A stretch of DNA of 64,000 nucleotides from an uncultured delta proteobacterium (GTDB lineage Bacteria > Desulfobacterota > DSM-4660 > Desulfatiglandales > HGW-15): assembly GCA_963815145.1 (NCBI GenBank), contig CAWFFS010000027.1, positions 52,737-116,736 on the forward strand, in the 5' to 3' direction. Position 1 is the first letter of the stretch, and each line of letters starts with the position of its first letter. Both the position numbers and the translations under genes were made by a program. Positions 2,901 through 45,314 of this stretch are shown piece after piece. The notes below the pieces were generated by a model. The model worked only from the letters and a program-made list of their open reading frames with translations, did not search any database and was not told the DNA's origin.

Positions 2901-2997
2901 AATTCAATTGACCCCTGAATTCCGACTTCCGGTAACTGATCGTTACCTTTGGATTTCCAGAAAGGACTGTAAGTGATTCAGGGGGCGTCAATGAATT
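2901..2997. repeat. Imperfect inverted-repeat pair with CCCC ends facing inward
   Basis: AATTCAATTGACCCCTGAAT (2901) and reverse complement AATTCATTGACGCCCCCTGAATC (to 2997). Confidence 0.7.
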
Positions 2998-3017
2998 AAT
3001 TCTAATTTCAGTTATTA

Positions 3018-3323
3018 TCATATTTTGATGGTAGCCCAGACTGTTTTCAGGTCAACTCCGAAATATTCATGGATAAGCTTATCCCGCATCCCGGCGATCT
3101 CCTTCCACGGTATTTTATTGTATCGGTTTCTTATATCATCAGGAATTTTTTTAACCGCTTCTCCGATTACTTCCAGGCAATGAATAACAGCATGTTGAGT
3201 TTTTTTATCAGCCTCAAATTCTTCATAAGATATGTCAGCAGTGAAATTAAGAATATCAGATATTGAGTCGTCAATATCATTAAGATAATCTATGATTTCT
3301 CTGCCTTTATTGTCATGAGACAT
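3018..3323 (-). CDS. HEPN/HepT (DUF86) ribonuclease toxin, C-terminus probably clipped
   Basis: RX4HXY motif RDKLIHEY; EVIGEAVKKIP, IPWKEIAGMR; stops right after VWATIKI, without the usual last helix. Confidence 0.88.
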   Translation of the reverse strand: MSHDNKGREIIDYLNDIDDSISDILNFTADISYEEFEADKKTQHAVIHCLEVIGEAVKKIPDDIRNRYNKIPWKEIAGMRDKLIHEYFGVDLKTVWATIKI

Positions 3324-3609
3324 ACTTTATCTCTTCCAGGATTCTTTTTCCTATGGCTGGCTTTAAGGCATTTTTCATAACAAGATCAACTTTTATCCCG
3401 ATGATTCTGGATAGATCATTTTCAAGCCTTATAAATTTTATCAGGCTGATCGGCTTTTTAAAATCAACAAGTATATCCAGATCACTATTTGTTTTTTGCT
3501 CACCTCTTAAATATGACCCAAATATACCTACACTATTCAGGTTGTAATCTTTTTTTAGGCTTTCCAGATTGCTTTTCAGAATTTTTTCTATGTCAGCCGA
3601 TGTCTTCAC
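3313..3609 (-). CDS. MNT nucleotidyltransferase antitoxin (MntA-like)
   Basis: GSX10DXD motif GSYLRGEQKTNSDLD; likely GTG start at 3609 after AAGGTG; overlaps the HEPN start. Confidence 0.9.
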   Translation of the reverse strand: MKTSADIEKILKSNLESLKKDYNLNSVGIFGSYLRGEQKTNSDLDILVDFKKPISLIKFIRLENDLSRIIGIKVDLVMKNALKPAIGKRILEEIKYVS

Positions 3610-3836
3610 TATATTCACCTTGTAATATAAATAAAATATGAGAATATTATTTTTACTTTTCTTTGTCAATTTCTAGACGTAACAGCATTCACTCTGTTTT
3701 CTATACAGTGTGCCCCTATCTTCATTCCCTTATTAACCTGCTATGGCGTCTTGTCACGGTGCAGCCCTGATGGAGACTGAATTAAATGGCTAAAGAGCTC
3801 TGCATTGAATATATTTAACCTGGTCCTGACGCCTTA

Positions 3837-4253
3837 TTACGGATTATTTAAAAAATCAGTCACGGATAAAACAGGAACAGGAGGATTTTTCATTTTTAAC
3901 AAATGATTATCTCCTGAAATAATTACATGTGCTTTCCCTTCAACAGCACACCAGATAAAAATATCATCCCGGGGGTCATTTTCAATAAACGGCTTTCCTT
4001 CCGGGACGAAAACCGGATGAAACCATGGCAGGATCTCAACAGAGAGCAGGTAGTCAATTTCAATATCAGTAAGGTTAAATTTTGGATAGGCCAGCACCCT
4101 CAAATATTCATCAATAATGTCTTTTGAGCATACGGGTTCAATACGTTTTTCCTTCCAGAGTGTGATGAGTTCCCCGGGTGTGCCGCTGAAAAGAAGGGCC
4201 GAGACAAGAACATTTGTATCTATAACGACCCTCTTTATTTTTTTCGGGCCCAC
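3837..4253 (-). CDS. PIN-domain toxin
   Basis: VVIDTNVLVSALL, DPRDDIF, IISGDNHLL. Confidence 0.9.
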   Translation of the reverse strand: MGPKKIKRVVIDTNVLVSALLFSGTPGELITLWKEKRIEPVCSKDIIDEYLRVLAYPKFNLTDIEIDYLLSVEILPWFHPVFVPEGKPFIENDPRDDIFIWCAVEGKAHVIISGDNHLLKMKNPPVPVLSVTDFLNNP

Positions 4254-4462
4254 TTTACCGCTTCCCCTACACTATTCTCCGAGATTCCAAGCTGTTTCAT
4301 TTTGGACCTGATCCCGTCAAGGTCAGTTTCATATACCTTGACCGGTTTCAATATGACATTCCCTTCACTGTAACTCACATCAAAATATTGCACATCCGGC
4401 AGCCTGGATATCACATCTTTTGGTATAGTGATCTGGTTTTTAGCAGTAAGTTTTGCAAGCAT
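4235..4462 (-). CDS. AbrB/MazE-family antitoxin
   Basis: AKLTAKNQITIPK swapped-hairpin motif; RBS AGGAGG; overlaps the PIN gene. Confidence 0.88.
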   Translation of the reverse strand: MLAKLTAKNQITIPKDVISRLPDVQYFDVSYSEGNVILKPVKVYETDLDGIRSKMKQLGISENSVGEAVKWARKK

Positions 4463-4622
4463 TTCTTACCTCCTTATTTTCTTACATTCTGAAAATAATA
4501 CCGATAAATAAGGTTAAAGACAAGGCAATTTATACACATTCCTGGCTGTCCATCAAAATCATTGGTTTATTTCCCATTTTTGATTGCAGTATCAAATGTT
4601 TAAGCCATTTTAACAGTAATTT

Positions 4623-4658
4623 TCCCACCTGTCCCATAAATTTATGGGACAGGTGGGA
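4623..4658. repeat. Perfect 36-bp palindrome
   Basis: TCCCACCTGTCCCATAAA|TTTATGGGACAGGTGGGA. Confidence 0.9.
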
Positions 4659-4758
4659 TATATCTTTAATAAAACTATTTAAGTAATTGAAATAACGTTA
4701 ATTTAAAGAAATTGCCTTACAGATTTCGATGGACACCTCAAGAGGTGAGGACCTGGTA

Positions 4759-4797
4759 TTTTATTGCCATTCTTAAGCACAATGGTGTCGGCATTAA
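4759..4797 (-). pseudogene. Tiny remnant of a paralog of the 12960-13736 gene
   Basis: Encodes ADTIVLKNGNK, the same peptide as in the 13736 ORF; nucleotide match to 13613-13648. Confidence 0.6.
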
Positions 4798-4887
4798 ACT
4801 TGCCCGGGATGATGAAGACCTGCCATAGCCCAAAGACGACGGCGGATTACACCCAATGTTGTTGATTTAACGAATATGCCTGTAAAA

Positions 4888-4997
4888 ATCTCCCTCCCCT
4901 GGCGGGAGGGATTAAGGGAGGGGGAGAAAACAGTAATAAGGTACCGAGTTTCTGTTTTGCCACCCTCACCCAACCTCTCCCATCAAGGGAGAGGAGC
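4888..4997. repeat. REP/BIME-like inverted element (CCCTCTCCC..GGGAGAGG type)
   Basis: CCCTCCCCTGGCGGGAGGG..GGGAGGGGG followed by inverted CCCTCACCCAACCTCTCCCATCAAGGGAGAGG. Confidence 0.7.
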
Positions 4998-5390
4998 TTA
5001 AGCGGAGGCAGACTGAAGTGAAGACATAACAGCCTTCAGACTAACAGGCTTCAGGCTGCATTTCTGAGATCCAGAATATGCTGGAAGGTTCAGAGAAAAT
5101 ACGCATACAGATTTTAGGGGGATAGATAAAGGCAGGCTGAAGGTGAACAGGCTGCCGTCGTTGTCAGGGCTCAGCCGGGCCAAGGAGGGCTTTTAGGTTT
5201 TTCTGTTTTTCCTAACAGCCTTCAGCCAAAACCGCTTCCCTGGCCCGGCGTAAACTTACTTGAAACCGGCATGCTGACTTTAAAAAAATCGTCCTTCATA
5301 TACAAAATATCAGAGCTATTGAATTATAAAACACGTTCCGCTCAATACAATCTGTCAAGAGTGAAGACCCCTTTTGTTTCATCGATTGTT

Positions 5391-6236
5391 TTACTCATCT
5401 TTCAAGGTCAACTCTTTAAAACAATCACTATCTCTTATACTATCAAAGTCTTTATCATCGCGCGCAAGATTCCGATATCTTTTTTCCAGTTTAATTGATC
5501 CTTTCAGATACTCACATGCTTCTTTCGAATGTCTTAACAGTGAATTTAAGTATGCCAAATTATAGTATATCATGGGATCAAGCGAATTAAGTGCCAATGC
5601 TTTTTTTAAATCTTTGCCTGCTTGATCAAGGTTGCTTTTTTTTATCCAGGCCAGCCCCCGGTTATGATAGGCTCTGTCACCCTCAGGATTTAACTGAATG
5701 GCCGTGTCGTAATCAGCAATAGCTCTATCATAATTACCTTTAAGGTACCAGGCCAGCCCTCTGTTGCAGAAAGCTTTATCTCCTTTAGGATTTATCTGAA
5801 TGGCCATACTGTAATCGGTAATAGCCTTGTCATAATAACCTTTGGCCTGCCAAAGCGCCCCACGGTTATTGTATGCTTTATCATATTCAGGATTTACCTG
5901 AATGGCCATGTTGAAGTCAGCAATAGCTTTATCAATATTACCTTTATAGCTCCAGGCCACTCCACGGTTATGGTATGCTTTATCATATTTAGGATTCAGC
6001 TTAATGGCCATACTGTAATCGGCAATAGCCTTGTCGTAATCACCTTCAGCCTCCCGGAGCATTCCACGATCGTAGAAGACTTTATCATTCTTAGGATTCA
6101 GCTTAATTCCTATCAGCTCTTCTTTTGCCGCTATATCTTTACTTTGCTTAAAATGATCTATTTTTGTAGTCGTGTCTGAAACATGTGCGCAACCTGCTAT
6201 GAGCAAAAAACAAATTAGAAAAGCACTGGTTTTCAC
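5391..6236 (-). CDS. TPR-repeat lipoprotein
   Basis: Lipobox LIAGC; about five 34-aa TPRs (AYxNRG..YDKAIADY..AIQLNP); GTG start with RBS AGGAG. Confidence 0.9.
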   Translation of the reverse strand: MKTSAFLICFLLIAGCAHVSDTTTKIDHFKQSKDIAAKEELIGIKLNPKNDKVFYDRGMLREAEGDYDKAIADYSMAIKLNPKYDKAYHNRGVAWSYKGNIDKAIADFNMAIQVNPEYDKAYNNRGALWQAKGYYDKAITDYSMAIQINPKGDKAFCNRGLAWYLKGNYDRAIADYDTAIQLNPEGDRAYHNRGLAWIKKSNLDQAGKDLKKALALNSLDPMIYYNLAYLNSLLRHSKEACEYLKGSIKLEKRYRNLARDDKDFDSIRDSDCFKELTLKDE

Positions 6237-6272
6237 GTTTATTCTCCTACTTTGAAATTATGGGACGTAAAC

Positions 6273-6835
6273 TTACTTGAGGCCGGCAGCCTGCTTTTTT
6301 GCTTCATTATCAATCTGAACTGTAACCGGCTCCACATCCCGACATTTCTGATCAAGCTGATGAACTATTCGCTGGACCAGGGTATCAGATAGCGGCATCT
6401 CTTTTTTGCTCTTTAAAAATGTTTTTATCTGCTTCGGGTTCAACACATTTACACCACGTGGAGGAGCCTTTCTTTCCACAAACCATCCTGGTATTGTCAA
6501 AATCGCTTCAACCTCTACCTGTTCACCAACTGCACTGGTGAGCCACTTTTGAAGATGAATGGCGTTTAGTCTTGCCTGTTTGAGAGATGAGGTATCAGAA
6601 TAATGAGGAAAGTTCATATCCTAATCGCAGGCGTCTTCGCTCATTAAGATATTTCCATAGTTTTCTAAAGGAAAACAACTCGAATAACACCATGACAGCG
6701 ATAAAATAAGTAAAATTGAAATTAAAGATAAAAACAGGGGTAAGCATGAACAAAGGAAGAATTACTATCAGGCTGAAATTGACAGTGATCTCCTCACTCA
6801 CCGATTGTATTTGTTCATTAAGTGATTATCCGGGG
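6273..6835 (-). pseudogene. NERD-domain gene remnant with internal deletion and no 5' end
   Basis: 6614-6767 identical to 12266-12419; fused out of frame to a C-terminal part similar to 11940-12046; core NERD segment is missing. Confidence 0.85.
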
Positions 6836-6946
6836 ATAAAAATCAGGTTATTTTCCCTTAACAGGAAACAGCCAGGGTGCTATAGTGAATATCCGGCAAA
6901 TCGCATGAAAAACAAATTTAAATTTTTTATTAAAAGGAGAAATAAA

Positions 6947-7357
6947 ATGGCCCGGATGACAGAGAAAATTGCTGAACTCTTTGAAAAAGTACCTACAGCA
7001 CTTCTGGCTACTGCAACTCCTGACGGGGTACCCAATGCAGTGCCCATAGGAGCAAAAAAAATTATTGATAATGAAACGATCCTTATATCAGACCAGTTTT
7101 TTAATAAAACACTGGTAAACATGAAGGCCAACCCAAAGGTTTCAGTTACATTCTGGGAGGGACATGACGGTTACCAGATAAAAGGTTCGGTGGTCATAGA
7201 AACAACAGGCAGCCGTTTTGAAGAAACCGCTAAATGGATAGAGGAAATGGGAAATAAAATAGGTGTTCCATTAAAATCCAAGGGCGCTGTTATACTCAGT
7301 ATTGATGAAATATACAACCTTACACCGGGACCTGATGCCGGAAAGCGTATTGCATAA
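6947..7357 (+). CDS. Pyridoxamine 5'-phosphate oxidase-family FMN-binding protein
   Basis: LATATPDGVPNAVP, DQFFNKTLVN, GYQIKG; true start MARMTEK at 6947 with RBS AAGGAG. Confidence 0.88.
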   Translation: MARMTEKIAELFEKVPTALLATATPDGVPNAVPIGAKKIIDNETILISDQFFNKTLVNMKANPKVSVTFWEGHDGYQIKGSVVIETTGSRFEETAKWIEEMGNKIGVPLKSKGAVILSIDEIYNLTPGPDAGKRIA

Positions 7358-7373
7358 AGAGGTTATTTTCAAA

Positions 7374-7398
7374 GGGGCAGCCTGTCAAATGCTGCCCC
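7374..7398. terminator. Hairpin between convergent genes (putative terminator)
   Basis: GGGGCAGC-loop-GCTGCCCC, with a T-run on the minus strand. Confidence 0.55.
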
Positions 7399-7486
7399 GG
7401 AATCACGCCTGTTAACTGCAATTCTTCTTGATTTGATCCAACCTATATGCTTTCATCTCCTCTTAGTAACCGACTAAACTGTTACT

Positions 7487-9394
7487 TTATTTTACATAGG
7501 GATTATATATAATATCACCCGACTTCTGATCACGGGAATAATGCCTGAAGAAATCCCAGGCGATCTTACCGTATTCAGGATAAAGGGCATGCTTCAGGTT
7601 CATTGTGTAGTTGACCGCGACCATTGGAATATTATCCTTATCATTAAGCGTCCAGGAGGTGTTGTCGTATTCACCGTTCACTTTAACCTTTATCATATAA
7701 TCGGCTTTAAAACCATTGACCGGCCAGGCCTTAAAATCGTAAGGCTCAATGGTTTCCATACCATTATAACCGAGAAAAAGGTTGAGCAGTGTCTGATATC
7801 CGACCGCGATTGTTCCATTTACCTGATCGAAAGCCCCGCCCAGATCAAAGGAAGACGTGGTGAACATTATTGGCATTCGCGCTTTCTGTAATTTAGCAGC
7901 CTCCTCGGGAGTGCCGGTGTATCCTGCCGCAGCCATAGGTACAGCAGCGGCAAATAATGAGGGTTTTCCATTAACCGCACGCAGAGTGGCTGCGCCTCCC
8001 ATGGAATAGCCGGTCACATATACGCGTGATGGATCCAGTTCGGGATAGGTTTTGAGCATGTATTCGACCAGAAGCGGAAGTGATTCTGTGAGTATTTGCC
8101 CGATACTCTGATGTTCAGGAGCAACCATGGCAAACCGTTCTGCGCCAGCCAGGGGAAGCAGACCGATTTCCTCGATAAACTGACGCGGATCGTCTCCGCC
8201 TCCATGGTTAGCGAGGATCAGAGGTACCGTTCCAGCCGGAGCTGTATGATTAAGCACCTCTTCAGGCAGATATTCAAACCAGGTCTGCAAATATTCACCG
8301 TTAGCGGTCTTCACTCTATTGAACCGGTTCTCAGAATGGCCGATTACATGAATTCCATCTTTAGTGGCATCGTTAATGACAGCATTTCTCTCACACAGCG
8401 ATAATGGAGCCTGATCCATACCATAGCCCTGATAGGGAGTTGATGCGCTGTGCAGGCCGGGTCTTCCCACAGGCACGCGCATTGCTTTAATAAACAGGTT
8501 GTAATAGGCATCATTGATGATAGCGGCTATATCCGGATTTTCCTGCCGGGTCACGACTACCTTTTTTAATGGTAATGCCTGATCAAAATAAATTTTTTGA
8601 TCAGGTGTGGCAGAATATGCGTTCGTCCGGTTGGCTTTTTTATATACCTTAATCACCGTCTCCGGCGCATTCACGAGGTATACGGGAACAAGTCCTGCCA
8701 CATTTCGACCGATTCCCATGTTGCCGTTGATCAGAAGCATTCCGGCAATCCTGCTTACATAGTCAAGTGTGCCTGCAATGTAATCGTTGAGATATGTCGC
8801 ACCCCCGTCAATACCGATGACATAGGTATATCCAAAACCGCCGAAATACTCCGCGTCACTGTACCTAATCCCGCCTCTGACCCAGGGGCCGCCCTGCCCT
8901 TCACCGGCTTTCTGTGCAAATATAGCTGTCTGCAGAGCATAATAGTATTTTTGATCATTAGCACCGAATGCCTTTCCGTCCGCAGGTGTAACGAGGATCA
9001 CGCTGCCGACAGCTTCATCGATGATCCTGATCAGTCCCAGGTCTTTAAGATATTTCTTTGCAGTATCTTTATTTTTAAAAGATTTTTCCACAAATACCAG
9101 TATATCAGTATTCAGACGGGCGGCTGCGCGTCCGCCGTAAAGGTTTGGCGACCGGTAGATGTATGTGGTCCCTTGCGGATATCCATCAAGAACCGGGTGG
9201 GATTTAAATTTTCTACCGCTGTTGCCTTCAAGGTCTGCGACAGCTATGGGGCCGTTTATGCGGGCTTCCTCCAGGGTTTCAAAAGAAGAGGAATTTTTCT
9301 GCCGCCCTGAATAGTCGAGTGCAGAAACAAGATCGGGGAAAATAATTAAAGCGAATATCAATGTTAAGATTTTCATCAATTGTTTTTTAATCAT
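7487..9394 (-). CDS. Secreted alpha/beta-hydrolase (PHB-depolymerase/esterase-like C-terminal domain)
   Basis: Signal peptide; VPLILANHGGG, DPSRVYVTGYSMGG, FAAAVPMA, HAL..AWDFF. Confidence 0.75.
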   Translation of the reverse strand: MIKKQLMKILTLIFALIIFPDLVSALDYSGRQKNSSSFETLEEARINGPIAVADLEGNSGRKFKSHPVLDGYPQGTTYIYRSPNLYGGRAAARLNTDILVFVEKSFKNKDTAKKYLKDLGLIRIIDEAVGSVILVTPADGKAFGANDQKYYYALQTAIFAQKAGEGQGGPWVRGGIRYSDAEYFGGFGYTYVIGIDGGATYLNDYIAGTLDYVSRIAGMLLINGNMGIGRNVAGLVPVYLVNAPETVIKVYKKANRTNAYSATPDQKIYFDQALPLKKVVVTRQENPDIAAIINDAYYNLFIKAMRVPVGRPGLHSASTPYQGYGMDQAPLSLCERNAVINDATKDGIHVIGHSENRFNRVKTANGEYLQTWFEYLPEEVLNHTAPAGTVPLILANHGGGDDPRQFIEEIGLLPLAGAERFAMVAPEHQSIGQILTESLPLLVEYMLKTYPELDPSRVYVTGYSMGGAATLRAVNGKPSLFAAAVPMAAAGYTGTPEEAAKLQKARMPIMFTTSSFDLGGAFDQVNGTIAVGYQTLLNLFLGYNGMETIEPYDFKAWPVNGFKADYMIKVKVNGEYDNTSWTLNDKDNIPMVAVNYTMNLKHALYPEYGKIAWDFFRHYSRDQKSGDIIYNPYVK

Positions 9395-9984
9395 GATCCT
9401 GTTCTCCTTGCTTCAGTGGTTCGTATTTATCATTTTGAATATGCAGGAAAGAGTTTGAAAATTTCGTTGATAAGAATTCCTTTTTTGAAGAATGATGTAT
9501 ATAGAGTCGGGAGCTGTGTGTCAATAGTAAACTAGCCCATTATAATTAGGGGATAATCCCATAGTCTCCTGTCAAGGTGAAAATTAATTTTTGTAATTTC
9601 AGCAGGTTGAAAGGGGCATATTTTCAGGGCATACTTCCTCTTCAGCCATAAGGCTATATAAACCGGCAAGTCTCTCGCTAAAGCAAATCCAATACCTGAT
9701 CGTTACAAATCCGGCGTATTACACTTCAGCTCCTGGCATTAATGAATCAGGAACCGGATATCAAGTCCCTAATTACGAAGTATCGAATTAATATTATTGC
9801 CAGTTTTGTATTCAAAACTAGATGTAAGATGATTTATGGCTTTGGGCAACAACCCGTGAAGTCCCCTGTGATTTTCCGTACATATTCCTAATTTATTTTC
9901 ATACTTTCATGTACGTCCAGTATTTCTACTGCTTGTCTCGGCGAAGCTTAATGCGAAGACTGAATCCGCCCTTCGCGAAAAGCT

Positions 9985-10048
9985 ACTGCTGCACAGGCCG
10001 GGGAATCCATACACAGCCCGTCATTCTCCGGCTTGACCGGAGAATCCA
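9985..10048. repeat. REP-like elements (GTCATT..GAATCC family)
   Basis: GTCATTCTCCGGCTTGACCGGAGAATCC; related copy at 27898-27922. Confidence 0.65.
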
Positions 10049-10139
10049 TTTTTTTTATTTCCAGCATTAAAATTTGCAAGAGCTAATTGGAGACCCCTTT
10101 ACCCATTGGCAACTAAATTTCTAAAGAGCGTCCCACTGC

Positions 10140-10269
10140 ATTGTAACAGTTGGCGGGGCTCTTATCTCAAATCAAAAACCTCAATTGATATTTTGAGGTA
10201 TCCCCCTATCCCCACTGATTATTACAGCATTTTAAAAGTTATTTAATTATTATAGGACGTCCCTCTTCA
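10140..10269 (+). repeat. ~130-bp direct repeat, second copy at 15767-15895
   Basis: ATTGTAACAGTTG..CTTATCTCAAATCAAAAACCTCAATTGATATTTTGAGGTATCCCCCTATCCCCAC..AGGACGTCCC nearly identical in both places. Confidence 0.92.
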
Positions 10270-10289
10270 CCAAACGTCCCTCTTCACCA

Positions 10290-10348
10290 AAAAAATCCAG
10301 GGCTTTATCCAGGTCAAAAACACGAATCATTGTGTGTAGAAATTTCAT
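10290..10348 (-). pseudogene. 5' stub of a glyoxalase/lactoylglutathione lyase gene
   Basis: RBS GGAG then [20 protein letters not shown]; runs directly into the GACGTCCC motif. Confidence 0.75.
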
Positions 10349-10553
10349 TTTTATTCTCCCATTTTTTGGATATTAAAGAGTTGCACCATTCATTTATTCA
10401 TGGAAGAGTGATGCTCTTTCGTAATTCAATAACTTTTTCGTCAACTAAATTACTATAGGATTGTCCCGTTTCACTATTATCCTGCCAATAGTAAAGATTT
10501 ATCCTGTTAAACATTTTTTGTATTTATTTAACCGGGACTTGACACCTATTGTT

Positions 10554-11699
10554 TTACAAACCAAATTCTCCTGCCCATAACATTTCAAGAAAGATTTCCC
10601 ATGGCAGCACCTCAATGGAGTTATCAAGTTTTCTTGGCTGTTTTTCCATTGAGACAATTAAAGCCCGCCTGACTGAACACTCTTCCATGAGAGCCCTCAG
10701 ACTTTTTGTATGGCCGCTATGTATCTTTTGCGTCCCTTTGATCTCGATCGCAACGTCCATATCTGCGAGGATAAAATCAACTTCAAATCCTGTACTTGTT
10801 CGCCAGAAACGAATGTCCAGTTCAGGGTTCCTGTATGCCTGGTAAGCTTTAAGCTCCATTAAAATGAAATGCTCAAAAGATTTGCCAAATTCAGGTGTGC
10901 CTGTCCGGGGTTTACGGCGCGCCAGATAGTTGGAGACCCCGATATCAAAAAGATAAAATTTTTCCGTTTCTATCAATCGCCTGTTTTTGGCTTTTTTCCA
11001 CGGAGGAATACGAAAACCAAGAAGTGTATCTTCAAGTATCTGGAAATATGTCCTTACAACCTTTGCGCTTACCCCCGTTTCTCTGGCTACATTTGTATAA
11101 TTTATCAATTCCCCTGATGTAAGTGATGCTGTTCTTAAAAATTCGGAAAAAGCAGGGATGTTTTGAATGAGAGCTTCCGAAGCAATTTCTTCCTTTAAGT
11201 AATCTCCAATATATGCCCGAAGGTCCTGTATCGGGTCCGGTGATAGAAAATGCGGAGGCAAAAGACCGGAAATCATAATCTCTTCAAGGTCAAACCCCTC
11301 TGTTTCCGTGTATGAAAGGGGTGCCATTGAATATCTCCACGCCCTTCCTCCTAAAAGATTCGCGTGGTTACGCCGGAGTTTACGGGCACTTGATCCTGTC
11401 ATCAAAAATGAAGTTTTGCTGTTTTCAATCAACCAGTGAATTTCATTCAAGAGGTCAGGCACCATCTGAATTTCATCGATAATAACAAGACCGTGGTGTT
11501 CCCTGTATTGTTCTCTTAGTAATGAGGGGCGGGATACATAATCGGCAAATATATCAGTCTTCAATAAATCGATAATAATCGATTCTTTAAAATGTTCACC
11601 TATCCAGTGTGTTTTTCCTGTTTTTCGTGGGCCCCAGAGAAATGCAGAACGGTTGCCCGGCAGGTTTATGTTCAATAATCTTTTTGTAATTTTATTCAT
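10554..11699 (-). CDS. AAA_14 ATPase with DUF4143 domain
   Basis: Walker A GPRKTGKT, Walker B IIDEIQ, TGSSARKL, KFYLFDIG, EVDFI..AIEIK. Confidence 0.9.
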   Translation of the reverse strand: MNKITKRLLNINLPGNRSAFLWGPRKTGKTHWIGEHFKESIIIDLLKTDIFADYVSRPSLLREQYREHHGLVIIDEIQMVPDLLNEIHWLIENSKTSFLMTGSSARKLRRNHANLLGGRAWRYSMAPLSYTETEGFDLEEIMISGLLPPHFLSPDPIQDLRAYIGDYLKEEIASEALIQNIPAFSEFLRTASLTSGELINYTNVARETGVSAKVVRTYFQILEDTLLGFRIPPWKKAKNRRLIETEKFYLFDIGVSNYLARRKPRTGTPEFGKSFEHFILMELKAYQAYRNPELDIRFWRTSTGFEVDFILADMDVAIEIKGTQKIHSGHTKSLRALMEECSVRRALIVSMEKQPRKLDNSIEVLPWEIFLEMLWAGEFGL

Positions 11700-11886
11700 G
11701 TTAAGGGAATATAATCTAGATAATTTATCCTGTCAAGCAATATTATCCTCTTAAATATAGAGACAAATATTGTTGAATTTTTATGTTTTTATTTAATTAA
11801 AAGAGGGTGAAGTTATAATCATGTTTTCTTATATAGCCTTTTTCATACCTGAAAACAGCAATATAAGGATAAAAAACAGGGTATTT

Positions 11887-12615
11887 TTATGCATATATTG
11901 ATTGATTACAATGAGTTAGCTTGGTCCGACCCAATGCCACTTCAACCTCTACCCGTTCACCAACCGCACTGGTAAGCCACTTTTGAAGATGTATTGCGTT
12001 TAGCCTTGTCTGTTTAAGAGAATCAGTATCTGTATAATGAGGAAACTTAAGTGAGCTTCCATCATAAATAACAGTGGCAGATTCATTCTTCTTTTTTATC
12101 CGGGATTTTGACCGTGTTTTTGTTTCAACTGCATAAACACCTGAACTGCCCACAATAATATGATCTATGTTGAATTTTTTTATCTTCTCTGTGACCAGAT
12201 CATGAAACACATGAAAGCCTTCCAGCATCAGCAGGTTAAGCTCCTGCCCCACCGCCACCTCACCATCATATCCTAATCGCAGGCGTCTTCGCTCATTAAG
12301 ATATTTCCATAGTTTTCTAAAGGAAAACAACTCGAATAACACCATGACAGCGATAAAATAAGTAAAATTGAAATTAAAGATAAAAACAGGGGTAAGCATG
12401 AACAAAGGAAGAATTACTACCGCACTGGAATTGACAGTTATTTCCTCACTCACCGATTGTATTTGTTCATTAAGCGATTGTCCGGGACTTCTTAAAAATT
12501 TATCAGTAAATGGCGCTCGCTTGTTTTTTCTGATCTGATACCATTTGTAAATTGACAAAAATAAAAAAGGAATCGCAAAGGCGCAAATTGCTATAGCAAA
12601 ATATAATAGTTGCAT
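11887..12615 (-). CDS. Membrane-anchored NERD nuclease-domain protein, 3'-truncated
   Basis: TM segments; GEVAVGQEL, VFHDL, NIDHIIVGSSGVYAVETK; similarity to the 6273 copy ends abruptly at EVEVA (about 11935). Confidence 0.82.
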   Translation of the reverse strand: MQLLYFAIAICAFAIPFLFLSIYKWYQIRKNKRAPFTDKFLRSPGQSLNEQIQSVSEEITVNSSAVVILPLFMLTPVFIFNFNFTYFIAVMVLFELFSFRKLWKYLNERRRLRLGYDGEVAVGQELNLLMLEGFHVFHDLVTEKIKKFNIDHIIVGSSGVYAVETKTRSKSRIKKKNESATVIYDGSSLKFPHYTDTDSLKQTRLNAIHLQKWLTSAVGERVEVEVALGRTKLTHCNQSIYA

Positions 12616-12959
12616 TTTTTATTCTCAGAGATTCAGGGTTATTGAATTAATAAGAGACATCTCCTTCAATTGCCAACTAAATTTCTAAAGAGAGTCCTGC
12701 TCAACACTAATTTATTTTCATATTTTCATGTACCATATTCCACACATCCTTTCGGTTTTCAAGCCATCTTATACTATAACCAAGGTTCAACTCTAACAGA
12801 TTAAAATATCTAAGTATCTTACCAAGTGCTGCATTTATTCGTAATTTGCGTTCGCTGGCTAAGTTCATAATTGTGTAAAATTGATTAATATAGAGAGTCT
12901 CACTCTCATTAGTAAGTTAATAGTTAAGGGTATCCCTCTATCTCACACACATTTTATTT

Positions 12960-13736
12960 CTAAAACTTAGGAGAATCTTTTTCTGTATATTCTTTCCTTT
13001 TTTTATCTTCTATCTTCTTTTTCTCTGCCCCGTTCTGATTACCTAGCGCATTATCGGAATATTCAATCTTAATATATCCTGCCTGGTAAATCATACTTAC
13101 TGTATATTGCCTATTTGCATTCCAGATGCGCGTATCACCGAAAAGCTGTTTACTGTATTTAATTTTATTCCCATATTTACTTTTAAGCATGTTCAGTATT
13201 TCTTCTTTAAATCCTTTATTACCCGCCCCCGCAGCTGTCAAACTGACAATCACCTTATGAAGGACTCTACTGGTGGGAGTAAAACAAAGTGACACATCCG
13301 CATACCTGTCCATGAGTTTCGTTTGATAATGGAAAGCGTTAAATTTATTGATGTCTTTATAAATATTTTGATTAAACTTATTGAAAAGTGAAGGACTGCC
13401 AATCCTGGCCAATGGAATGTCATTTTTATCCGCTATTTTAAAGGCCTTTTCGATGCTTATACCAGCTTGCCATATATCAAATTCAAAAGAGTCATTTGGG
13501 GTCTCTTTTTCATAGATGACTGTCTGAACAGTGTCCTTAGGGAAACTCACAAACCCATAGGGTTTTTTCCCTTTTATCAAGCCATCTTCTTCCCATGCAT
13601 GATCAACCTCTGTTTTATTACCATTCTTAAGCACAATGGTATCCGCACTGGTTTGAACAACCAGGCAGCAGAATGAAGCAATAAAAACCAGGCATACAGA
13701 TTTTATGCTTATGATTAACCTTTTCATAATTATCAA
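12960..13736 (-). CDS. Exported hypothetical protein
   Basis: Signal peptide followed by ADTIVLKNG; long ORF directly downstream of the NERD gene. Confidence 0.7.
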   Translation of the reverse strand: MIIMKRLIISIKSVCLVFIASFCCLVVQTSADTIVLKNGNKTEVDHAWEEDGLIKGKKPYGFVSFPKDTVQTVIYEKETPNDSFEFDIWQAGISIEKAFKIADKNDIPLARIGSPSLFNKFNQNIYKDINKFNAFHYQTKLMDRYADVSLCFTPTSRVLHKVIVSLTAAGAGNKGFKEEILNMLKSKYGNKIKYSKQLFGDTRIWNANRQYTVSMIYQAGYIKIEYSDNALGNQNGAEKKKIEDKKRKEYTEKDSPKF

Positions 13737-13750
13737 TCAGCTCCCTATCC

Positions 13751-13775
13751 GTAGGGCGGGGTTTTACACCCCGCC
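13751..13775. repeat. GTAG-family REP
   Basis: GTAGGGCGGGGTTTTACACCCCGCC; near-copy at 43281. Confidence 0.75.
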
Positions 13776-13786
13776 GCTTCAAATCA

Positions 13787-14572: not shown

Positions 14573-14733
14573 TCTTCATTCCTGCATTTATGTTCGATAA
14601 AAAATAGAATGAGTTTTACAAAGGATGTTCCGGACAAAAAGAATTCCGTATCAGTATATATATCGGCAGGTTCTGTATTTTATATAATTATTATTTTTAT
14701 CCCATGTTGAGATCGCCCCCGACTGTCCGTTTC

Positions 14734-15705: not shown

Positions 15706-15892
15706 TCATAACATTTGTCCAATGTCAAGAGGCGATCCAGTCGCTTTCATTTATTTTCTTATAGATATTGTAACAGTTGCGGGGCTCTTATCTCAAATCA
15801 AAAACCTCAATTGATATTTTGAGGTATCCCCCTATCCCCACCGATTATTACAGCATTTTAAAAGTTATTTAATTATAAAAGGACGTCCCCCT

Positions 15893-31672: not shown

Positions 31673-31701
31673 AGACCTTATCGCTCATAATGTAATTATC
31701 T

Positions 31702-31880: not shown

Positions 31881-32190
31881 GATGGTTTGGCTGTCTGACC
31901 AGTAATAAATTGACTTTCCAAACCAATTTTGTAAAATACACGGGTTTATAAATACTGGATACGTTCTTTTTATTAACCTGAATGGAGGACTCGTTATGAG
32001 CGACTCGGATGGCAGTCATAGTTACCCGAAAATGCCCCATAAATTGAGCCAAAATAATTTCGAAGACCCTGGATCGCGATATTTACGCCACGCGACTCAC
32101 GACGTGAACGGTTTGCGCCGCCTGGCATAACCTGCCGGTTCACCTCCGGTCGCGTCCAACCTTCCGTCGTGGCCGAAATTGAGGTGAACA

Positions 32191-36289: not shown

Positions 36290-37800
36290 ATGAAAAAATC
36301 AAAAACCAATTATACTTACTGCCTGATCTGCCGGATAATAATTCCGGCGTTATTAATCATATGCATATCACAATATATCTATGCAGCAGGAAAAGATAAA
36401 AATCAGAAGGCCTGGCTTGCCCGACTTGAAGCCCAGGCGGAGGTTATATGGGGGCCGGACAACACCTGGCTCCCGAGACCCATTTAGTGGTCCAATATGA
36501 ACGGGGTCTGGGTGAACGCAGTATGGTTGATTTGAGAGAGGTAAGGCCTGTGTTCAGATAATTTTAAAGGCTGATGATGATCCCTGGAGGGAAGCGGTCC
36601 TAGCGCATCTTAAACAGGGCGTTGGCAATCTGATCTTCCAGAAACCGGAAGATCCAGTGGAATGATAAAAAATCGGATAAAAAAAACCTGTCCCCTGTTG
36701 TGGCGGATTCCGGGCCAATGGAAATGCCGCCAGGAAAGGGAATAAGAATCTATCTCATTGAAAAAGGAGATTCCCTGTGGAAGATTTCCCGCAGATTTGG
36801 AATGAAAATAGAAGATCTTGTCGGCTAAACAAATTAAACAAAAAAGAAACTTTGCATCCCGGGCAACCGATAAAGGTTCTCGTTTATGCGTCCCACGATC
36901 TAACACTGGATTCCGGGCCTGATAACAGAGCGGATGGCCCATTGCTCCTGGACCAGATACGCATGGCTAGACGGCCGCCCGGTTCAGCCCTGTCAATGGT
37001 GCGGGATTTTGCGGAGGATTACTTGAAAACCATCCGCGAAAATGGGAAAAAATAACTGGTAAAGATGGAATTGAGCGGCTTGCAGTCAGCATTGAATTTA
37101 TCTCGTCTCAAATCATGTGGAAATTCGCGCCAGAAAATTTTACCCCATGGTCCGGAAACAGGCTGAGAAAATAGATGTTGATCCTGCTGTAGTAATGGCA
37201 ATTATTCACACCGAATCCATGTTCAACCCGATGGCAAGATCCAACACCCCTGCCTATGGACTTATGCAGCTTGTCCCGCGATGGAGGAGGCCTTGAGGCA
37301 TACAATGCAATGACTGAAGAGACCCGGAAACTGACACCCAATATCTGTATATCCTGAATAACAATATCGAACTGGGAACTGCGTATTACAAAATTTTGAA
37401 AACTAGATATATGGGGGATATCGATGAACCCGTAAGCCGTAAGATATTGTGCAGTGGCCGCATACAATGCCGGGGCCTCAAATGTTGGTTATGCATTTAT
37501 TTCAACGAAATCTATCAACCAGGCGGCCCCTGGATTAACCGGATGGCACCCCGGAAGGTTTATCAAAGGTCTGATTAAAAAACTTCCTATCCAAAGAGAG
37601 TCGAGACTATGTCCGCAAGGTATTTGACTCGTGTAAAACTTTATCGTGACTGGAAAAGTCTTATCGATAGTCCTCAGATTTTATTTGCCGGAGATGATAA
37701 ATCTGCGATCCGATTTATTTTTTTACGATATCCGGTTCCAATTTATCCATCCGGATCAGTACCTGATCCAGGCAGGAGTCTGCACAAATTAAAATCCCGA
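36290..37800 (+). pseudogene. MltC-like lytic transglycosylase (DUF3393 + LysM + SLT) with multiple frameshifts
   Basis: Pieces in different frames: ERSMVD, LysM-like KGDSLWKISRRFG, MAIIHTESMFNP, AYGLMQLVP, NIELGTAY, AAYNAG; end approximate. Confidence 0.75.
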
Positions 37801-39185
37801 TTCTGCCATGATCAGCATACGGCATGCTTTGCAGTCAAATTCGAGTCTGTAGGTATGTTGCCTGTCACCTATCCTTAAAGGTCCGGCTATCATAGGATTA
37901 TTTTGCCTGTTGGCTGATTTGAGACAGGCATCCAGTTCGTACCGCAGGCAATACCTGGTGGTCATCAGCACCCGGCTGAATTTATTGTTTACAGAGCCAT
38001 CGCTTTCCGATTCAAGGGCCATTTCCCTGACTTCTACCCCGTGTTTTTTATAAAAGGCCAGTGCTTTTGTATTCAGGATATTAGCGCGGTAATCCACCTC
38101 TTTTTCGGGATAGGGTATATTGTTTGTGATAATTGCAGCCTCAGGACGCGGCATGGCAGGGATACGTGCCTGTGTAAGCTGAGTAAGCGCCCTCCGCCTG
38201 ATGTCGTTTATGATGCTCAAGGCAAGAAAACCAGGCTGATCAGGATAGATAGTTACTGACCTTACCCTGTATGGTGTATCCCCTGTCCTCATTAATTGTG
38301 TTTCAATAACAGAGCGTGCACGCTGAGGATTTTGGGCCGGTTGAAATTCGGCCTCCTGTGATATTTCAACAGTGACACCATCTTCATCTTTTACAGTCAA
38401 CCGGATGCCCTTGTCACCCTGGTTGAATATCATCTCAACGTCAATTGCGCGGCAGTGTGCGGAGCCCCTTAAAACACTTAAAAAATCAGTATCCGAATTT
38501 CTGTATAATTCTGTGCCTGCTGTAAGACCGGTCATGGTGTTAGGATAAATTTTGTTGCCTGCCACCCTTTCTACCTTAAATCCTGTAAGTTCACTGTCCC
38601 TGTTGAAAAAACAGATACCATCCCCGTTTCGCAGATCATGGTCCTGAAGCCGGAAAAAATTCCTGCCCGGTTTAACTATCCGGCCTATAAATTTTCCGAT
38701 GGATTTTGGGGTATCCATGGCGGCTATCTTTTCACGTTTCCCTTCAATGAAATATCCGGTAAACCCGCGATTAAATGTTTTTTCAGGATCAGGTTTAAAG
38801 CCAAAGGTACAGGTACCGCTGCTTTCCCTGCGATATTGCGAATGAGCGGCAATATACTCATCAATGACCAGCCTGTAGAGAGCAGTGATATTTTTTACAT
38901 ATTCTATCTCCTTATAGCGGCCTTCTATCTTAAAGGAGGTAACACCGGCAGCTACAAGATCACCTATGGATTCGAGGCGGTTCATATCCTTCAGGGAGAG
39001 AGGGTATTTATTGTCCAGGACAGTTTGATTGCTGCCATTGATAAGGCTGTATTTATGCCGGCATAGCTGGGCACATACCCCACGGTTACCGCTGCGTCCT
39101 GCTGCATACTGACTAAGGTAGCACTGGCCGCTGTATGACACGCACAGGGCACCGTGAACAAATACCTCCAGTTCCACTGATGTTC
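37789..39185 (-). pseudogene. U32 peptidase/RlhA-like gene lacking its N-terminal part
   Basis: ELEVFVHGALCVSYSGQC, RSGNRGVCAQLCR, SFKIEGR, DUF3656-like C-term; homology starts mid-domain at about 39185. Confidence 0.85.
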
Positions 39186-39194
39186 CATAAATAC

Positions 39195-39245
39195 AGGGAT
39201 ATGCCGGATGTATCCGGGCATATAGTGACGCGTTGCCCCGGCCAT
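39195..39245 (-). mobile_element. 5' stub of a RAYT/Y1 HUH transposase (second subtype)
   Basis: MAGATRHYMPGYIRHI resembles the MARxxRHYIPGxxWHI N-termini of this family (recalled, not searched). Confidence 0.55.
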
Positions 39246-39409
39246 GGATTCTTTCTAAAAAGGCTTTATTACCATAAAAACTCAATATAGGTCTATTTTA
39301 TAAGTATGCAGGTTGGGTTAAGCAAAGCAACCCCAAAATATTTCAAATGTCAAATGGACTCCCTAAAACATGGTCGATTTCCTGTGCGCTTGTCAACACA
39401 AGCTTAAGT

Positions 39410-39504
39410 CTTTCATTATCTCTGAATATATTTCCGCCTTCAACACCTCTGGCAATGATATGGTGTAATGCACCCGGTGTGTTTATCCTCGATTGTCTTG
39501 GCAT
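39410..39504 (-). mobile_element. 5' stub of a REP-associated tyrosine transposase (RAYT)
   Basis: MPRQSRINTPGALHHIIARGVEGGNIFRD is a typical RAYT N-terminus; HUH and catalytic Tyr are absent. Confidence 0.8.
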
Positions 39505-39539: not shown

Positions 39540-39790
39540 TTATTTTCCTGTTACTGCTGATTGATAAGCTGCAAGGAGTTCTGCGTCATCGATCGAGCCA
39601 TGGTGGTGAGTTTGTCGCCATTTGTTGTCAACCTTCCGAAATATTCTGCTCGTTCGAATATACAAGTCAACCCGATTTTTACCCAGTTGAAAAAATCCCC
39701 TCTCCCTTCCAACTGCGTAGAATACCTTATCGTGCTCGTGAATGGTATAATCGTAATATTCAACATATACCTTCGCTGGCCCGTTGAATA
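39540..39790 (-). pseudogene. 3' part of an NTF2/SnoaL-like gene (not in the ORF track)
   Basis: FNGPAKVYVEYYDYTIH..YAVGRERG..IRTSRIFRKVDNKWRQTHHHGS; no start; begins at the 39794 motif. Confidence 0.75.
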
Positions 39791-39793
39791 GAT

Positions 39794-39862
39794 GGGGACG
39801 CTCTTTAATAATTTAATATTTCCTTAGTAACTAAATTTTTAAAGAGCGTCCCACTCTACCAC
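39794..39862. repeat. REPIN-like inverted element with outward-facing CCC ends
   Basis: GGGGACGCTCTTTAATAATTTA..TAAATTTTTAAAGAGCGTCCC; right arm also at 10110-10137 and 12674-12700. Confidence 0.85.
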
Positions 39863-43193: not shown

Positions 43194-43280
43194 TCCTTAA
43201 ATAAAATCAAAATACACTAATGCTGTGTCAACGATCCAGTGTCGCTATGTGTCATTTTGACCAGCGGGAGGAATCCCTTC

Positions 43281-43370
43281 GTAGGGTGGGGTTTTATACC
43301 CCACCATGTAGAGACAAGGTATACCTTGTCTCTACAGAAAAACCGGTCGGGAGTAAGTCCCGACCCTACG
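43281..43370. repeat. Cluster of three GTAG-family REPs
   Basis: GTAGGGTGGGG..CCCCACC; GTAGAGACAAGG..CCTTGTCTCTAC; GGTCGGGA..TCCCGACCCTAC. Confidence 0.75.
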
Positions 43371-43410
43371 AAAATACTTATTTAAATGACAATCGACGCA
43401 TGACACGACA

Positions 43411-44559
43411 CTAGCCTGTTTTAGAGAACTCGTAATTTCTACCTGTTTCGAGCATGATCCTGAAATTTTCAGGCTTTACATTAGGCGGTACGCAGCAGCC
43501 CGAGCTCAATATAAATCCTCCATCTCCTCCAACCTCATCGATGAGTTTTTTGCAGTAGGCCTCCACATCTTCCGGCTTACTGACAGACAGCAATATGCCG
43601 GAAACATCCCCGCAAAGTGTCTGGTGACCACCTAAAATCTCTTTAGCAAGGAAAATATCGGTAGCACTGTCCAGCTCAAGTGCTACACTGCCTCTCGGCA
43701 ACTTTTTGAAGTACGGGAGATTCTTGTCCCAGCATGTATCCATATGGATAAACGTCACGATGCCTTCTGACCAGAAGGCATCCACTATTTCCTCAAGATA
43801 CGGCCACCAGAATCGTTCAAATATTGATAAAGGATAGTAGTAGTTCGACGCCCTTTCTTCGCCAAGCTGCCACCTTTTTAAACCGGATTTTTTAGCAGCC
43901 GGAAGTTTCTCTGAAATCAGGTCGGCCGTCATTCTTTTCATTGTTTTTTCCACCATGTCCGGTTTAAAATACAAGTCCTTTGTAAATTCAACGAGCGAAC
44001 GCATCATGGAGAGTGCGAAAAAGGGATGGGACCCCATATCAGATACGAGCGGTTCGATTCCTCTTTCAGAACATTGTCTCCCAACTTTATCTGCAGTGAC
44101 TTTTAAATCATTCATCACCCCGGCCACCTCTTCTCGCTTGATATCGCAGATGCGAAAAAGATAATCTTCGTAATAAAAGTTATTAAACCCCATCTCACAG
44201 ATTTTTTCGTAGTCCTCATACTTGAGCACATCCTCTTCCACTGCCTGGACGATTTCGTCTTCCGGTAAATCAATGCCTGGAACCCGTTGCTTCATCGGGT
44301 TGACTCCAACTACCTGAAAAGCAGCAGCTGATAACCCGCCACCAAAAAAGCTGTCCCACCCGCCATATTTGTCGAATACCTGAAAGGATAAATCTGATGC
44401 CAGCGCCATGTCGTTATAAACATTTGCCAGATTATGATAACCCATGAGATTTGCTGCAGCTGCTTCGGATACAAGAGGCGCTACTGGAACACGGTCAGGT
44501 TTTTCCAGTCTTAATGCCGCTTCTACTCTTTCTTTTGGTGACATAGTTTCTTCTGACAT
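43411..44559 (-). CDS. UroD/MtaA-CmuA-fold methyltransferase-like protein
   Basis: KERVEAALRLEKPDRVPV, FIHMD, TLCGDV, GGFILSSGC..PPNVKPEN. Confidence 0.85.
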   Translation of the reverse strand: MSEETMSPKERVEAALRLEKPDRVPVAPLVSEAAAANLMGYHNLANVYNDMALASDLSFQVFDKYGGWDSFFGGGLSAAAFQVVGVNPMKQRVPGIDLPEDEIVQAVEEDVLKYEDYEKICEMGFNNFYYEDYLFRICDIKREEVAGVMNDLKVTADKVGRQCSERGIEPLVSDMGSHPFFALSMMRSLVEFTKDLYFKPDMVEKTMKRMTADLISEKLPAAKKSGLKRWQLGEERASNYYYPLSIFERFWWPYLEEIVDAFWSEGIVTFIHMDTCWDKNLPYFKKLPRGSVALELDSATDIFLAKEILGGHQTLCGDVSGILLSVSKPEDVEAYCKKLIDEVGGDGGFILSSGCCVPPNVKPENFRIMLETGRNYEFSKTG

Positions 44560-44560
44560 A

Positions 44561-45193
44561 TTAATTCTCCTTTATCACGTTCACGCAATACTCTACCCCT
44601 TCCATCGCGTTTTTAGTCTGGAAGTCAGCGCCAACATACGCTTTCACGTCGTCATCAGTCATAGCTCCTCCGATGATGAGCTTTACACTGTCTCTCCGTC
44701 CTGTTTCGATGAGTAAATCGACGGCCTTTTTCATAGTGTCGAATGTCGTAGTGAGGAGTGCCGAAAATCCAACGATCTCCGGCTCGATTTCTTTTATCTT
44801 ATCGACCACCACGGTCGGTTCCACGTCAACACCAAGGTCATATACCTCGAAACCATATGCAGTAAGCAGGGTGGCGACAATATTCTTTCCCAGGTCATGG
44901 ATATCACCTCTCAACGTGGCCAGGACCACCTTGCCTATTCCTTTTTTAGTGCGTTGTTTGTCCAGGTAAGGTTTAAGAATGCTGGTGACTTCTTTGAAAA
45001 TCTCGGCGGACAACATTAACTCAGCAAGAAAATATTTACCTTCCTGATATTTTTTACCTATAATATCCATAGCCTGGCGACATTCATTGAGAATGTGAAG
45101 GGGGTCGTCTCCTCGATCGATATCATTTTTTAGCTGTTTTATAACTTCCTCCAGATTTAACTCCTCAAACACCACGATCAGTTCTTTTGACAT
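44561..45193 (-). CDS. Corrinoid (B12-binding) methyl-acceptor protein
   Basis: YFLAELM cap domain; DxHxxG motif GDIHDLGK, DLGVDV, SALLT, IIGGA. Confidence 0.93.
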   Translation of the reverse strand: MSKELIVVFEELNLEEVIKQLKNDIDRGDDPLHILNECRQAMDIIGKKYQEGKYFLAELMLSAEIFKEVTSILKPYLDKQRTKKGIGKVVLATLRGDIHDLGKNIVATLLTAYGFEVYDLGVDVEPTVVVDKIKEIEPEIVGFSALLTTTFDTMKKAVDLLIETGRRDSVKLIIGGAMTDDDVKAYVGADFQTKNAMEGVEYCVNVIKEN

Positions 45194-45314
45194 TTCATTA
45201 AATCTCCATTCGAGAATAAAATGATTGTGTGAGATCAATTTCGATAACTTTTCATGATCCCTTAAGGGAGTCCCTCTTCACGATTTACAATTCAGATATC
45301 TCAAAGTGAAATTG

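Follow-up and report, generated by a model that had tools for sequence, protein, structure and literature searches.

The elements closest to those described here are the TIRtrons, named together with their TIRYT genes by Di Nocera, De Gregorio and Rocco in 2013 (PMC3733652). According to passages of that paper, TIRtrons have the end motif GGGGWSAS, and their repeats occur singly, as dimers and in groups. Passages of Quentin et al. 2018 (PMC6006769) assign most TIRYTs to TnpA_REP subclass 2.1, with a C-terminal Bac_DnaA_C or helix-turn-helix domain, and RAYTs are typically single-copy in the passages available from Bertels et al. 2017 (PMC5581495). A full-text literature search for 'TIRYT' found only PMC3733652 and PMC6006769, and the passages of these two papers contain no demonstration of experimental TIRYT activity. 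The locus studied here is a window of 64,000 nucleotides from an uncultured delta proteobacterium (genome G000, contig C27, positions 52737-116736), part of a 5.94-Mb draft of 29 contigs that is 89.7% complete with 3.45% contamination. Short CCC-ended motifs beside broken genes of the window had been proposed to be sites of DNA capture. The motif very probably forms the outermost part of the terminal inverted repeats in transposon-like elements of about 1.09 kb, TIRtrons, that have multiplied in this genome.

The repeat family and its elements

The CCC-ended motif is a genuine genome-wide repeat family. A repeat search found the sequence ending in AACTAAATTTCTAAAGAGCGTCC three times in the window; 26 genome copies are present at up to four mismatches, and a profile search returned 74 matches at E values up to 10. 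Among the genome sites anchored on CGTCCC, 130 of 1263 have at least three neighbours sharing at least 17 of the 24 inner bases, compared with 2-22 such sites for four control hexamers that have the same composition and no overlap with the motif. Clustering placed 110 strict CGTCCC copies in a single family. With 38 subfamily profiles, nhmmer detected 183 end copies genome-wide (E<0.01), of which 64 lie beside TIRYT genes or gene fragments, 32 form doublets, 10 are stacked and 77 are solo. Eight of the 183 are located at 2901-45282 of the window, which makes up 0.71% of the genome and would be expected to hold about 1.3 from its length. Of 31 related genomes, counting G000, 24 have the family, with 50 matches in G000 versus 0-16 elsewhere, and the GGGACG core stands at both ends of all five elements from relatives.

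Each element contains one gene, which encodes a 335-aa protein with a Y1 HUH domain at its N-terminus and a putative DnaA_C-like helix-turn-helix at its C-terminus. The Pfam profile Y1_Tnp (PF01797) matches the protein above its cut-off, with an E value of 2e-8. The Bac_DnaA_C-like region scores 21.5 bits (E 2.4e-4) and reaches 25-28 bits in other copies; the match recurs at the same place across TIRYT copies and is always under the Pfam cut-off of 31.5. The NCBIfam RAYT model NF047646 gives 52.4 bits and does not reach its cut-off of 80. Searches with tblastn identified 20 full-length TIRYT genes, 19 of them in the main family, and many fragments. All 20 full-length copies retain the HUH motif, and 18 of them the tyrosine of LFQNRYKS. 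In four lineages there are copies whose proteins share 95% identity or more, and several element lineages have multiplied recently in the genome. A second TIRYT-like family, 35% identical, has five copies.

The ends of the intact copies were inspected, and the repeat is present at one or both ends of all 19 main-family copies, which bears out the predicted tie between the motif and RAYT-like HUH/Y1 genes. It is inverted in 20 of the 20 elements with both ends detected. The inverted repeats are about 45 bp long. From the outside inward, an end consists of 6-9 lineage-specific bases, GGGGACG, a lineage-specific hexamer and an AT-rich stretch, and it reads outward as ...CGTCCCC. The outermost lineage-specific bases include TAAAGC, GTAAAGG, TCAATG and GTGGATTAG, and at least eight cognate end subfamilies coexist in the genome. 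The gene-side end carries TTGACA-17-TAAATT directly before the start codon, which is promoter-like as a consensus match only. No target-site duplication is visible at the elements. A conserved tip hairpin with covariation between subfamilies was considered by eye and not retained: its register varies from one subfamily to another, and some subfamilies lack the stem. By sequence, the elements fit TIRtrons encoding TIRYTs.

In 20 of the 43 adjacent outward-facing pairs of ends, the CCC tips are 1070-1095 bp apart and enclose 978-1050 nt of TIRYT homology, with the transposase gene as the only gene. Doublets of 56-61 bp account for 12 further pairs, four pairs span 79-130 bp, and three are internally deleted copies. 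Folded as single strands, doublets give DNA hairpins of -18.5 and -22.7 kcal/mol (z -6.6 and -8.3). The remaining four pairs contain other DNA, and each joins ends of different subfamilies. Cargo-bearing composites were considered and rejected, as these four pairs have mismatched subfamilies and one of them, 10408...12698, is false because the feature at 10403-10470 is itself a doublet. An IS608-like strand bias was likewise rejected: the TIRYT genes (15 of 20 on the G-rich strand versus 1519 of 2375 long open reading frames, ORFs) and the solo ends (split 43:34 between strands) both have unremarkable strand counts.

The outermost 8-43 nt are duplicated in tandem at 17 of the 183 ends, compared with 94 of 20,000 random positions. 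The duplications include the window tips at 10257-10290 and 39852 and one relative's element (L003 in genome G010). Repeated cutting and rejoining at the tip might produce them, which is a guess. Ends are also stacked in the same direction, with four at 9899-10290 and up to four at 12637-12940.

IS110-family transposase genes abut end repeats at C6:69891-70928 and C1:13044-13493, one of them intact and the other truncated. In the repeat subfamily of the C6 copy, 45 nt of flanking sequence are also kept at four loci. An IS110-type element may target the end repeats.

Repeat ends and broken genes in the window

Window sites were assigned to the family by their highest gap-free identity, over 36 nt, with 118 family copies that lie outside the window. 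For 5000 random CCC-containing genome sites, the 99.9th percentile is 24/36 and the maximum 26. By this measure a chance motif is ruled out for at least 10 window sites, and it is the likely reading for 19171 and ~39200. The members are the sites at 10134, 10263, 12698, 15889, 39795, 39852, 2986, 9922, 10204, 10408, 12660 and 15829. The site at 10463 is a weak member, 12935 and 45270 are borderline, and 11932, 19190, 25502, 25560 and 39196 are non-members. The copies at 2986 and 10408 (minus strand) and at 9922, 10204, 12660, 15829 and 39852 (plus strand) were absent from the original prediction. It had named six motifs at which genes are cut; those at 10258, 15884 and 39795 belong to the family, and those at 11923, 25501 and ~39200 do not. 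Of its six further copies, three to four match the family: 10124 (30/36) and 12687 (27/36) are members, 10457 is one weakly (23/36, p=0.007), 12926 and 45263 are borderline, and 19171 (p=0.35) falls outside.

The leftmost member is a degenerate end of the gene-distal type on the minus strand (2981-3021; nhmmer E 5e-5; 28/36, 0 of 5000 random sites), whose tip faces left and adjoins the HepT stop codon. A degenerate promoter-side-type end follows on the plus strand at 9899-9925 (E 2e-3; 27/36, 0 of 5000). The end repeat at 10096-10142 (plus strand; E 2.5e-12; 30/36) finishes in AACTAAATTTCTAAAGAGCGTCCCACTGCATT and runs into a 130-bp miniature at 10140-10270 (plus strand; E 3.9e-12) with two ends, 10179-10210 and 10223-10270. 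The site predicted at 10254 is the outer tip of this miniature (CGTCCC at 10258-10263; 30/36, 0 of 5000). Nucleotides 10257-10273 are repeated at 10274-10290 (plus strand) as a 17-nt tandem tip duplication (ACGTCCCTCTTCACCAA). Farther right is a degenerate doublet at 10403-10470, the fold of which is lost, with a minus arm at 10403-10444 and a plus arm at 10435-10470 (nhmmer E 4e-5 and 4e-3; 27/36 and 23/36). Two ends are stacked in the plus direction at 12637-12705 (E 1.5e-7), a degenerate one at 12637-12668 (24/36, p=0.001) and a clear one at 12666-12705 (27/36, 0 of 5000). Two weak end-like remnants on the plus strand at 12885-12940 (E 0.0075 and 0.046 when 140 nt were searched with nhmmer) precede the stop codon of the ORF at 12960-13736; the site at 12926 has 21/36 (p=0.05). 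The second copy of the 130-bp miniature occupies 15767-15895 (plus strand), is 96% identical to the first and contains the site predicted at 15880 (CGTCCC at 15884-15889; 30/36); there is no third copy in the genome. A miniature doublet of inverted ends spans 39788-39859, with GGGACG at 39795-39800 and CGTCCC at 39847-39852 (nhmmer E 4e-10 and 2e-10). Its single-stranded DNA hairpin has -18.5 kcal/mol and a z of -6.6, and its left arm, the site predicted at 39794, has 28/36. A possible terminal remnant (TTAAGGGAGTCCCTCTTCAC) is located between two intact genes at 45260-45281 (plus strand; nhmmer 5-6 bits at the tip only; 21/36, p=0.05).

The six genes predicted to be cut, encoding a glyoxalase, a helicase, a SnoaL-like protein, a NERD protein, a nuclease and a U32 peptidase, are all truncated according to homologue or Pfam coverage. 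The glyoxalase is represented by a 5' stub of about 21 codons on the minus strand (10288-10350), which begins directly after the 17-nt tip duplication. The 93 bp at 10288-10380 match at 99% the 5' end of an intact 139-aa gene at C27:46236-46655, 16 kb from the stub, together with DNA upstream of that gene.

The UvrD-type helicase gene (15893-17701, minus strand) encodes 602 aa and lacks the C-terminal nuclease domain. Its stop codon is the final 3 nt of the second miniature. The closest homologue has 922 aa, is 40% identical over aa 29-581 and ends in a PDDEXK_1 (PD-(D/E)XK) nuclease domain. A C-terminal fragment of such a nuclease is encoded at 25083-25484 on the minus strand (Pfam positions 124-246 of 247; BLASTP E 3e-17 to aa 797-920 of the homologue). 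In tblastn, the homologue matches only two places in the genome, 15962-17614 with aa 20-580 and 25092-25484 with aa 790-918. The two pieces share a strand without overlapping, and their order along transcription is C-part, module, N-part. The module between them (17738-24875) encodes a Dcm methylase, an ATPase/kinase-like HEF_HK protein, a Response_reg_2 protein, an HNH_2 nuclease and Vsr. The genome G129 has the same five genes in the same order without a helicase beside them. Among 400 further genomes sampled from the phylum, one has the Response_reg_2 protein. The permuted halves could stem equally from a tandem duplication followed by two deletions or from the integration of a circle whose break lay within the gene. 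The motif on the nuclease side, 25501, has 19/36 (p=0.35). A doublet at 25490-25565 was considered there and rejected (19/36, nhmmer about 0-1 bits at both candidate arms, fold z -0.13), and in the 400-nt stretch searched the nhmmer maximum is 5.1 bits and no hairpin is present.

The SnoaL-like fragment (39543-39788, minus strand) is a C-terminal half cut at the miniature doublet; it matches SnoaL_3 positions 65-118 of 121 with an E value of 4.7e-4, just under the Pfam cut-off. The peptidase U32 gene (37789-39285, minus strand) is without its N-terminal part, as the Pfam profile begins at 82 of 233. The motif at ~39200 lies within the U32 coding sequence (17/36, p=0.85). The U32 break is away from any tip, between 39285 and a TIRYT N-terminal stub (aa 1-31) at 39412-39504 on the minus strand (tblastn E 8e-9). 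This stub is one of two predicted RAYT stubs and is RAYT-like; searches with three query proteins did not reveal the second.

The NERD gene (11887-12615, minus strand) has its native 3' part replaced from 11940 downstream. Homology to paralogues and relatives starts at 11940-11942, and the relatives' NERD genes run on into sequence like that at 6310-6614. The motif at 11923 (GGTCCGACCC; 21/36, p=0.05) is not a family member, yet it marks a true breakpoint. It finishes the end of a different repeat, at 11824-11932 on the plus strand, which abuts the truncated gene and has an 83% copy at C7:136733-136841. Related populations were represented by Logan contigs, not raw reads, from four public sequence runs of one study containing 0.30-0.34 of the words, and were compared with window 2900-22000. 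Contigs of these runs join 11932 to 12487/12494, whereas the window joins it to another NERD position. Position 11932 could be where another mobile element has its tip.

The window has an island of defence and mobile-element genes at 3-29 kb (Pfam and PADLOC scans). It includes HepT/MNT and PIN toxin-antitoxin pairs, two NERD genes, a DUF4143 ATPase, HNH nucleases, the UvrD/GajB-like helicase, the PD-(D/E)XK fragment and the five-gene Dcm-Vsr module. Ordinary-looking metabolic genes begin at about 40.8 kb. The sequence directly upstream of the window (C27:36000-52736) and window 1-12700 form a diverged paralogous pair, in which the DUF169 gene is 88% identical, the NERD fragments 98% and the PIN-region pieces 88-90%, and the intact glyoxalase gene corresponds to the stub, a pairing that points to an old segmental duplication of the island. 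An IS4-like element at 26138-27755 (DDE_Tnp_1_4 transposase, 429 aa) has four further copies of 99.6-99.8% identity on contigs C7, C8, C10 and C15. A ~150-bp repeat at 4847-4998, unrelated to the CCC-ended repeats, has at least 11 more genome copies at 83-95% and many in relatives. Short dispersed repeat families at 9548-9729 and 4618-4751 are present in the genome and relatives, and a ~180-bp repeat at 31698-31881 has copies of 81-98% on contigs C14, C16, C17 and C23. Tandem 7-nt units of the CTCTGCG and CCCATGC types with a 14-nt periodicity occupy 57115-57274. No known RNA family from Rfam was detected at gathering score in the window, and one chance-level match falls within 2900-16100.

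Origin of the gene breaks

The broken genes look like ordinary insertion and deletion scars and not like the product of gene capture. In the proposed course of events, the HUH enzyme would cut single-stranded DNA at or near the tip, and the helix-turn-helix would read the subfamily-specific part of the repeat. Elements would land in or beside genes, by preference beside existing ends, and later deletions starting from an element end, or recombination between copies, would remove one flank. The remnant would be a piece of a gene abutting a CCC tip. Two-end doublets, internally deleted copies, same-direction stacks and solo ends are what the elements have left behind, and the defence and mobile-element island at 3-28 kb is the place where such scars accumulate. 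Insertion, nested insertion and adjacent deletion within an island explain the pattern without any capture function. In one metagenome contig, a tip resembling the one at 12700 directly adjoins 10288, which corresponds to the site without the 130-bp miniature and suggests insertion right beside existing tips.

Truncation at the tips extends beyond the window. An open frame of at least 50 aa runs up to the tip at 102 of the 183 ends, and of the 101 distinct frames scanned, 33 have Pfam matches (E up to 1e-4). Judged by our own reading of profile coverage, 15 of the 33 are cut on the tip side, a plain count and not a test of enrichment. The genes cut encode IS110, IS5-type DDE and DUF772 proteins, three phage-type integrases, a resolvase, a group II intron maturase, three TIRYTs, RhuM, a GH2 glycosidase, RACo and DJ-1. 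Two of the others (IS66 and the helicase of the window) are probably cut, 10 are intact on the tip side, and 6 cannot be judged.

Several observations weigh against this explanation. The same family was not found on both flanks of any element or doublet, and insertion into a gene was never caught; without gene halves on both sides of an element, every truncation needs a second event. No empty site was found in the genus for the one doublet and the one element that were searched with their flanks, so that mobility and the exact termini are read from comparisons between copies only. The only flank match in that search, in genome G001, likewise abuts a repeat end. The breaks at 11932, ~25490 and ~39285 have no family repeat, and other processes must therefore break genes here too. 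The end motif departs from the published consensus at position 7, which is G and not A. The genome looks like a metagenome-assembled draft, and among the 30 contig pieces listed only the 15767 junction is bridged, the other repeat junctions being unbridged.

The original prediction held that a RAYT-like enzyme uses the tips as cut-and-join sites, where it would take up arbitrary pieces of DNA and build a co-oriented, integron-like array. Gene fragments do abut outer tips, in the window and at at least 15 loci genome-wide. The glyoxalase stub is a near-identical copy of part of a gene 16 kb away and is joined at a tip, position 10288 has three different partners across the window and the metagenome contigs, and the helicase-nuclease pieces are permuted around a self-contained module, with the N-part ending at a tip. 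An S9/alpha-beta hydrolase gene (7487-9418), 90-94% identical in five relatives, also stands in varied contexts: homology ends within about 25 bp of the gene, the flanks read in three relatives each differ from the window, and two of these relatives (G001 and G006) have tips that point towards the gene. All of this could be expected of capture, but the complete elements are uniform and hold the transposase gene only, and none of the 43 outward-facing pairs is a matched subfamily with foreign cargo. No combination of cargo and end turns up at several loci; the repeats are all that recurs. Half of the motifs claimed to cut genes are outside the family, and the co-orientation of the genes follows the genome-wide strand bias (1519 versus 856 long ORFs on the G-rich strand). 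Phage_integrase has no match in the 50 window ORFs scanned, and this lack of an integrase too argues against an integron-like array. Capture in this form is quite unlikely. A related conjecture, by analogy with IS26 units and with ISCR and Helitron transduction, is that TIRtron ends are active joining points. Neighbouring DNA would be cut out there and inserted again, possibly in circular form, either by the HUH enzyme or through recombination between copies. This conjecture would explain together the permuted helicase-nuclease halves, the glyoxalase stub at a tip and the several partners of 10288, and also the hydrolase gene between inward-facing tips in relatives and the tandem tip duplications as footprints of cutting and rejoining. 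This, too, is unlikely to be the explanation.

The gene breaks might also be unreal, if shared short repeats had led the assembly to join different strains into chimeras. A draft in 29 contigs with 3.45% contamination invites such doubts, and contigs of related populations stop beside repeats at 9914, 10417 and 11865 and include other arrangements. On the other hand, the repeats, at up to about 50 bp (130 bp for the miniature), are short for mis-joining, and tip truncations are spread over many contigs. A contig of run X2, covering 15536-15827, bridges the 15767 junction; a terminal duplication is also present in the relative G010 (L003), which is assembled in four contigs; and features within the stubs, the 17-nt tip duplication among them, point to real events. 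An artefact of this kind is highly improbable. The dispersed ends and doublets could instead be mainly sequences retained by the host as terminators, promoters or protein-binding sites, REP-like and served by a domesticated enzyme, with the gene breaks incidental. Strong doublet hairpins between genes and the promoter-like site in the gene-side end fit this possibility, and RAYT/REPIN systems are argued to be domesticated in passages of PMC5581495. The multi-copy genes, with near-identical copies in four lineages, are unlike single-copy RAYTs, many repeat copies are decayed, nested or truncated, and the number of matches varies from 0-16 among relatives to 50 here. A mainly host-serving role is very unlikely, and insertion with subsequent deletion is the preferred origin of the scars.

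Comparison with known systems

The genome is rich material for the study of TIRYTs, with about 20 intact genes, at least eight lineages that have their own cognate ends, near-identical copies and miniatures. The recognition code, helix-turn-helix versus variable hexamer, and the cutting chemistry are directly testable with these elements, and the tip duplications may mark the cleavage site. For annotation, CCC-ended motifs flag transposon scars, and the gene fragments that adjoin them are best treated as pseudogenes.

The elements share with RAYT/REP/REPIN systems a related HUH Y1 enzyme, inverted dispersed repeats around the gene and non-autonomous doublets that fold into hairpins. They differ in having no GTAG-tagged REP hairpin at the ends, in the RAYT model score (52.4 versus the cut-off of 80) and in being multi-copy and insertion-sequence-like, and thus form an IS-like counterpart of the supposedly domesticated single-copy RAYTs. 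The Y1_Tnp domain and the lack of a visible target-site duplication are also features of IS200/IS605 elements such as IS608 and ISDra2. In contrast to those, the elements have true terminal inverted repeats of ~45 bp instead of subterminal hairpins, no tnpB gene, and a protein of 335 aa with an added DNA-binding domain, compared with ~150 aa for TnpA.

Miniature inverted-repeat transposable elements (MITEs), such as Correia elements and Tn3-derived TIMEs, are short, non-autonomous, two-end derivatives of an autonomous element that spread genome-wide. The doublets differ from them in being only ~57-70 bp long and derived from an HUH rather than a DDE element. Unlike in IS91/ISCR elements and Helitrons, no shared foreign cargo travels with the end, and the non-repeat duplicates of the window recur without an attached end. 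Integron arrays resemble the locus in their co-oriented accessory genes and in the short imperfect palindrome near gene ends; here, there is no IntI, gene-plus-site cassettes do not recur, and the palindromes are transposon-end doublets spread over many contigs instead of a single array.

The likeness to TIRtrons is the most extensive. Both have a Y1 HUH protein that is longer than RAYTs, a gene between long terminal inverted repeats starting with GGGG, and single, dimeric and grouped dispersed repeats. The C-terminal region here also resembles a Bac_DnaA_C-like helix-turn-helix, at scores under the Pfam cut-off. The elements of this genome differ from the published ones in their core, GGGGACG(C/T) versus GGGGWSAS, with G at position 7. 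They are further distinguished by at least eight cognate end subfamilies, by 20 full-length genes, several of them near-identical, in elements of a uniform ~1.09 kb, and by the tandem duplications at 17 of the 183 tips.

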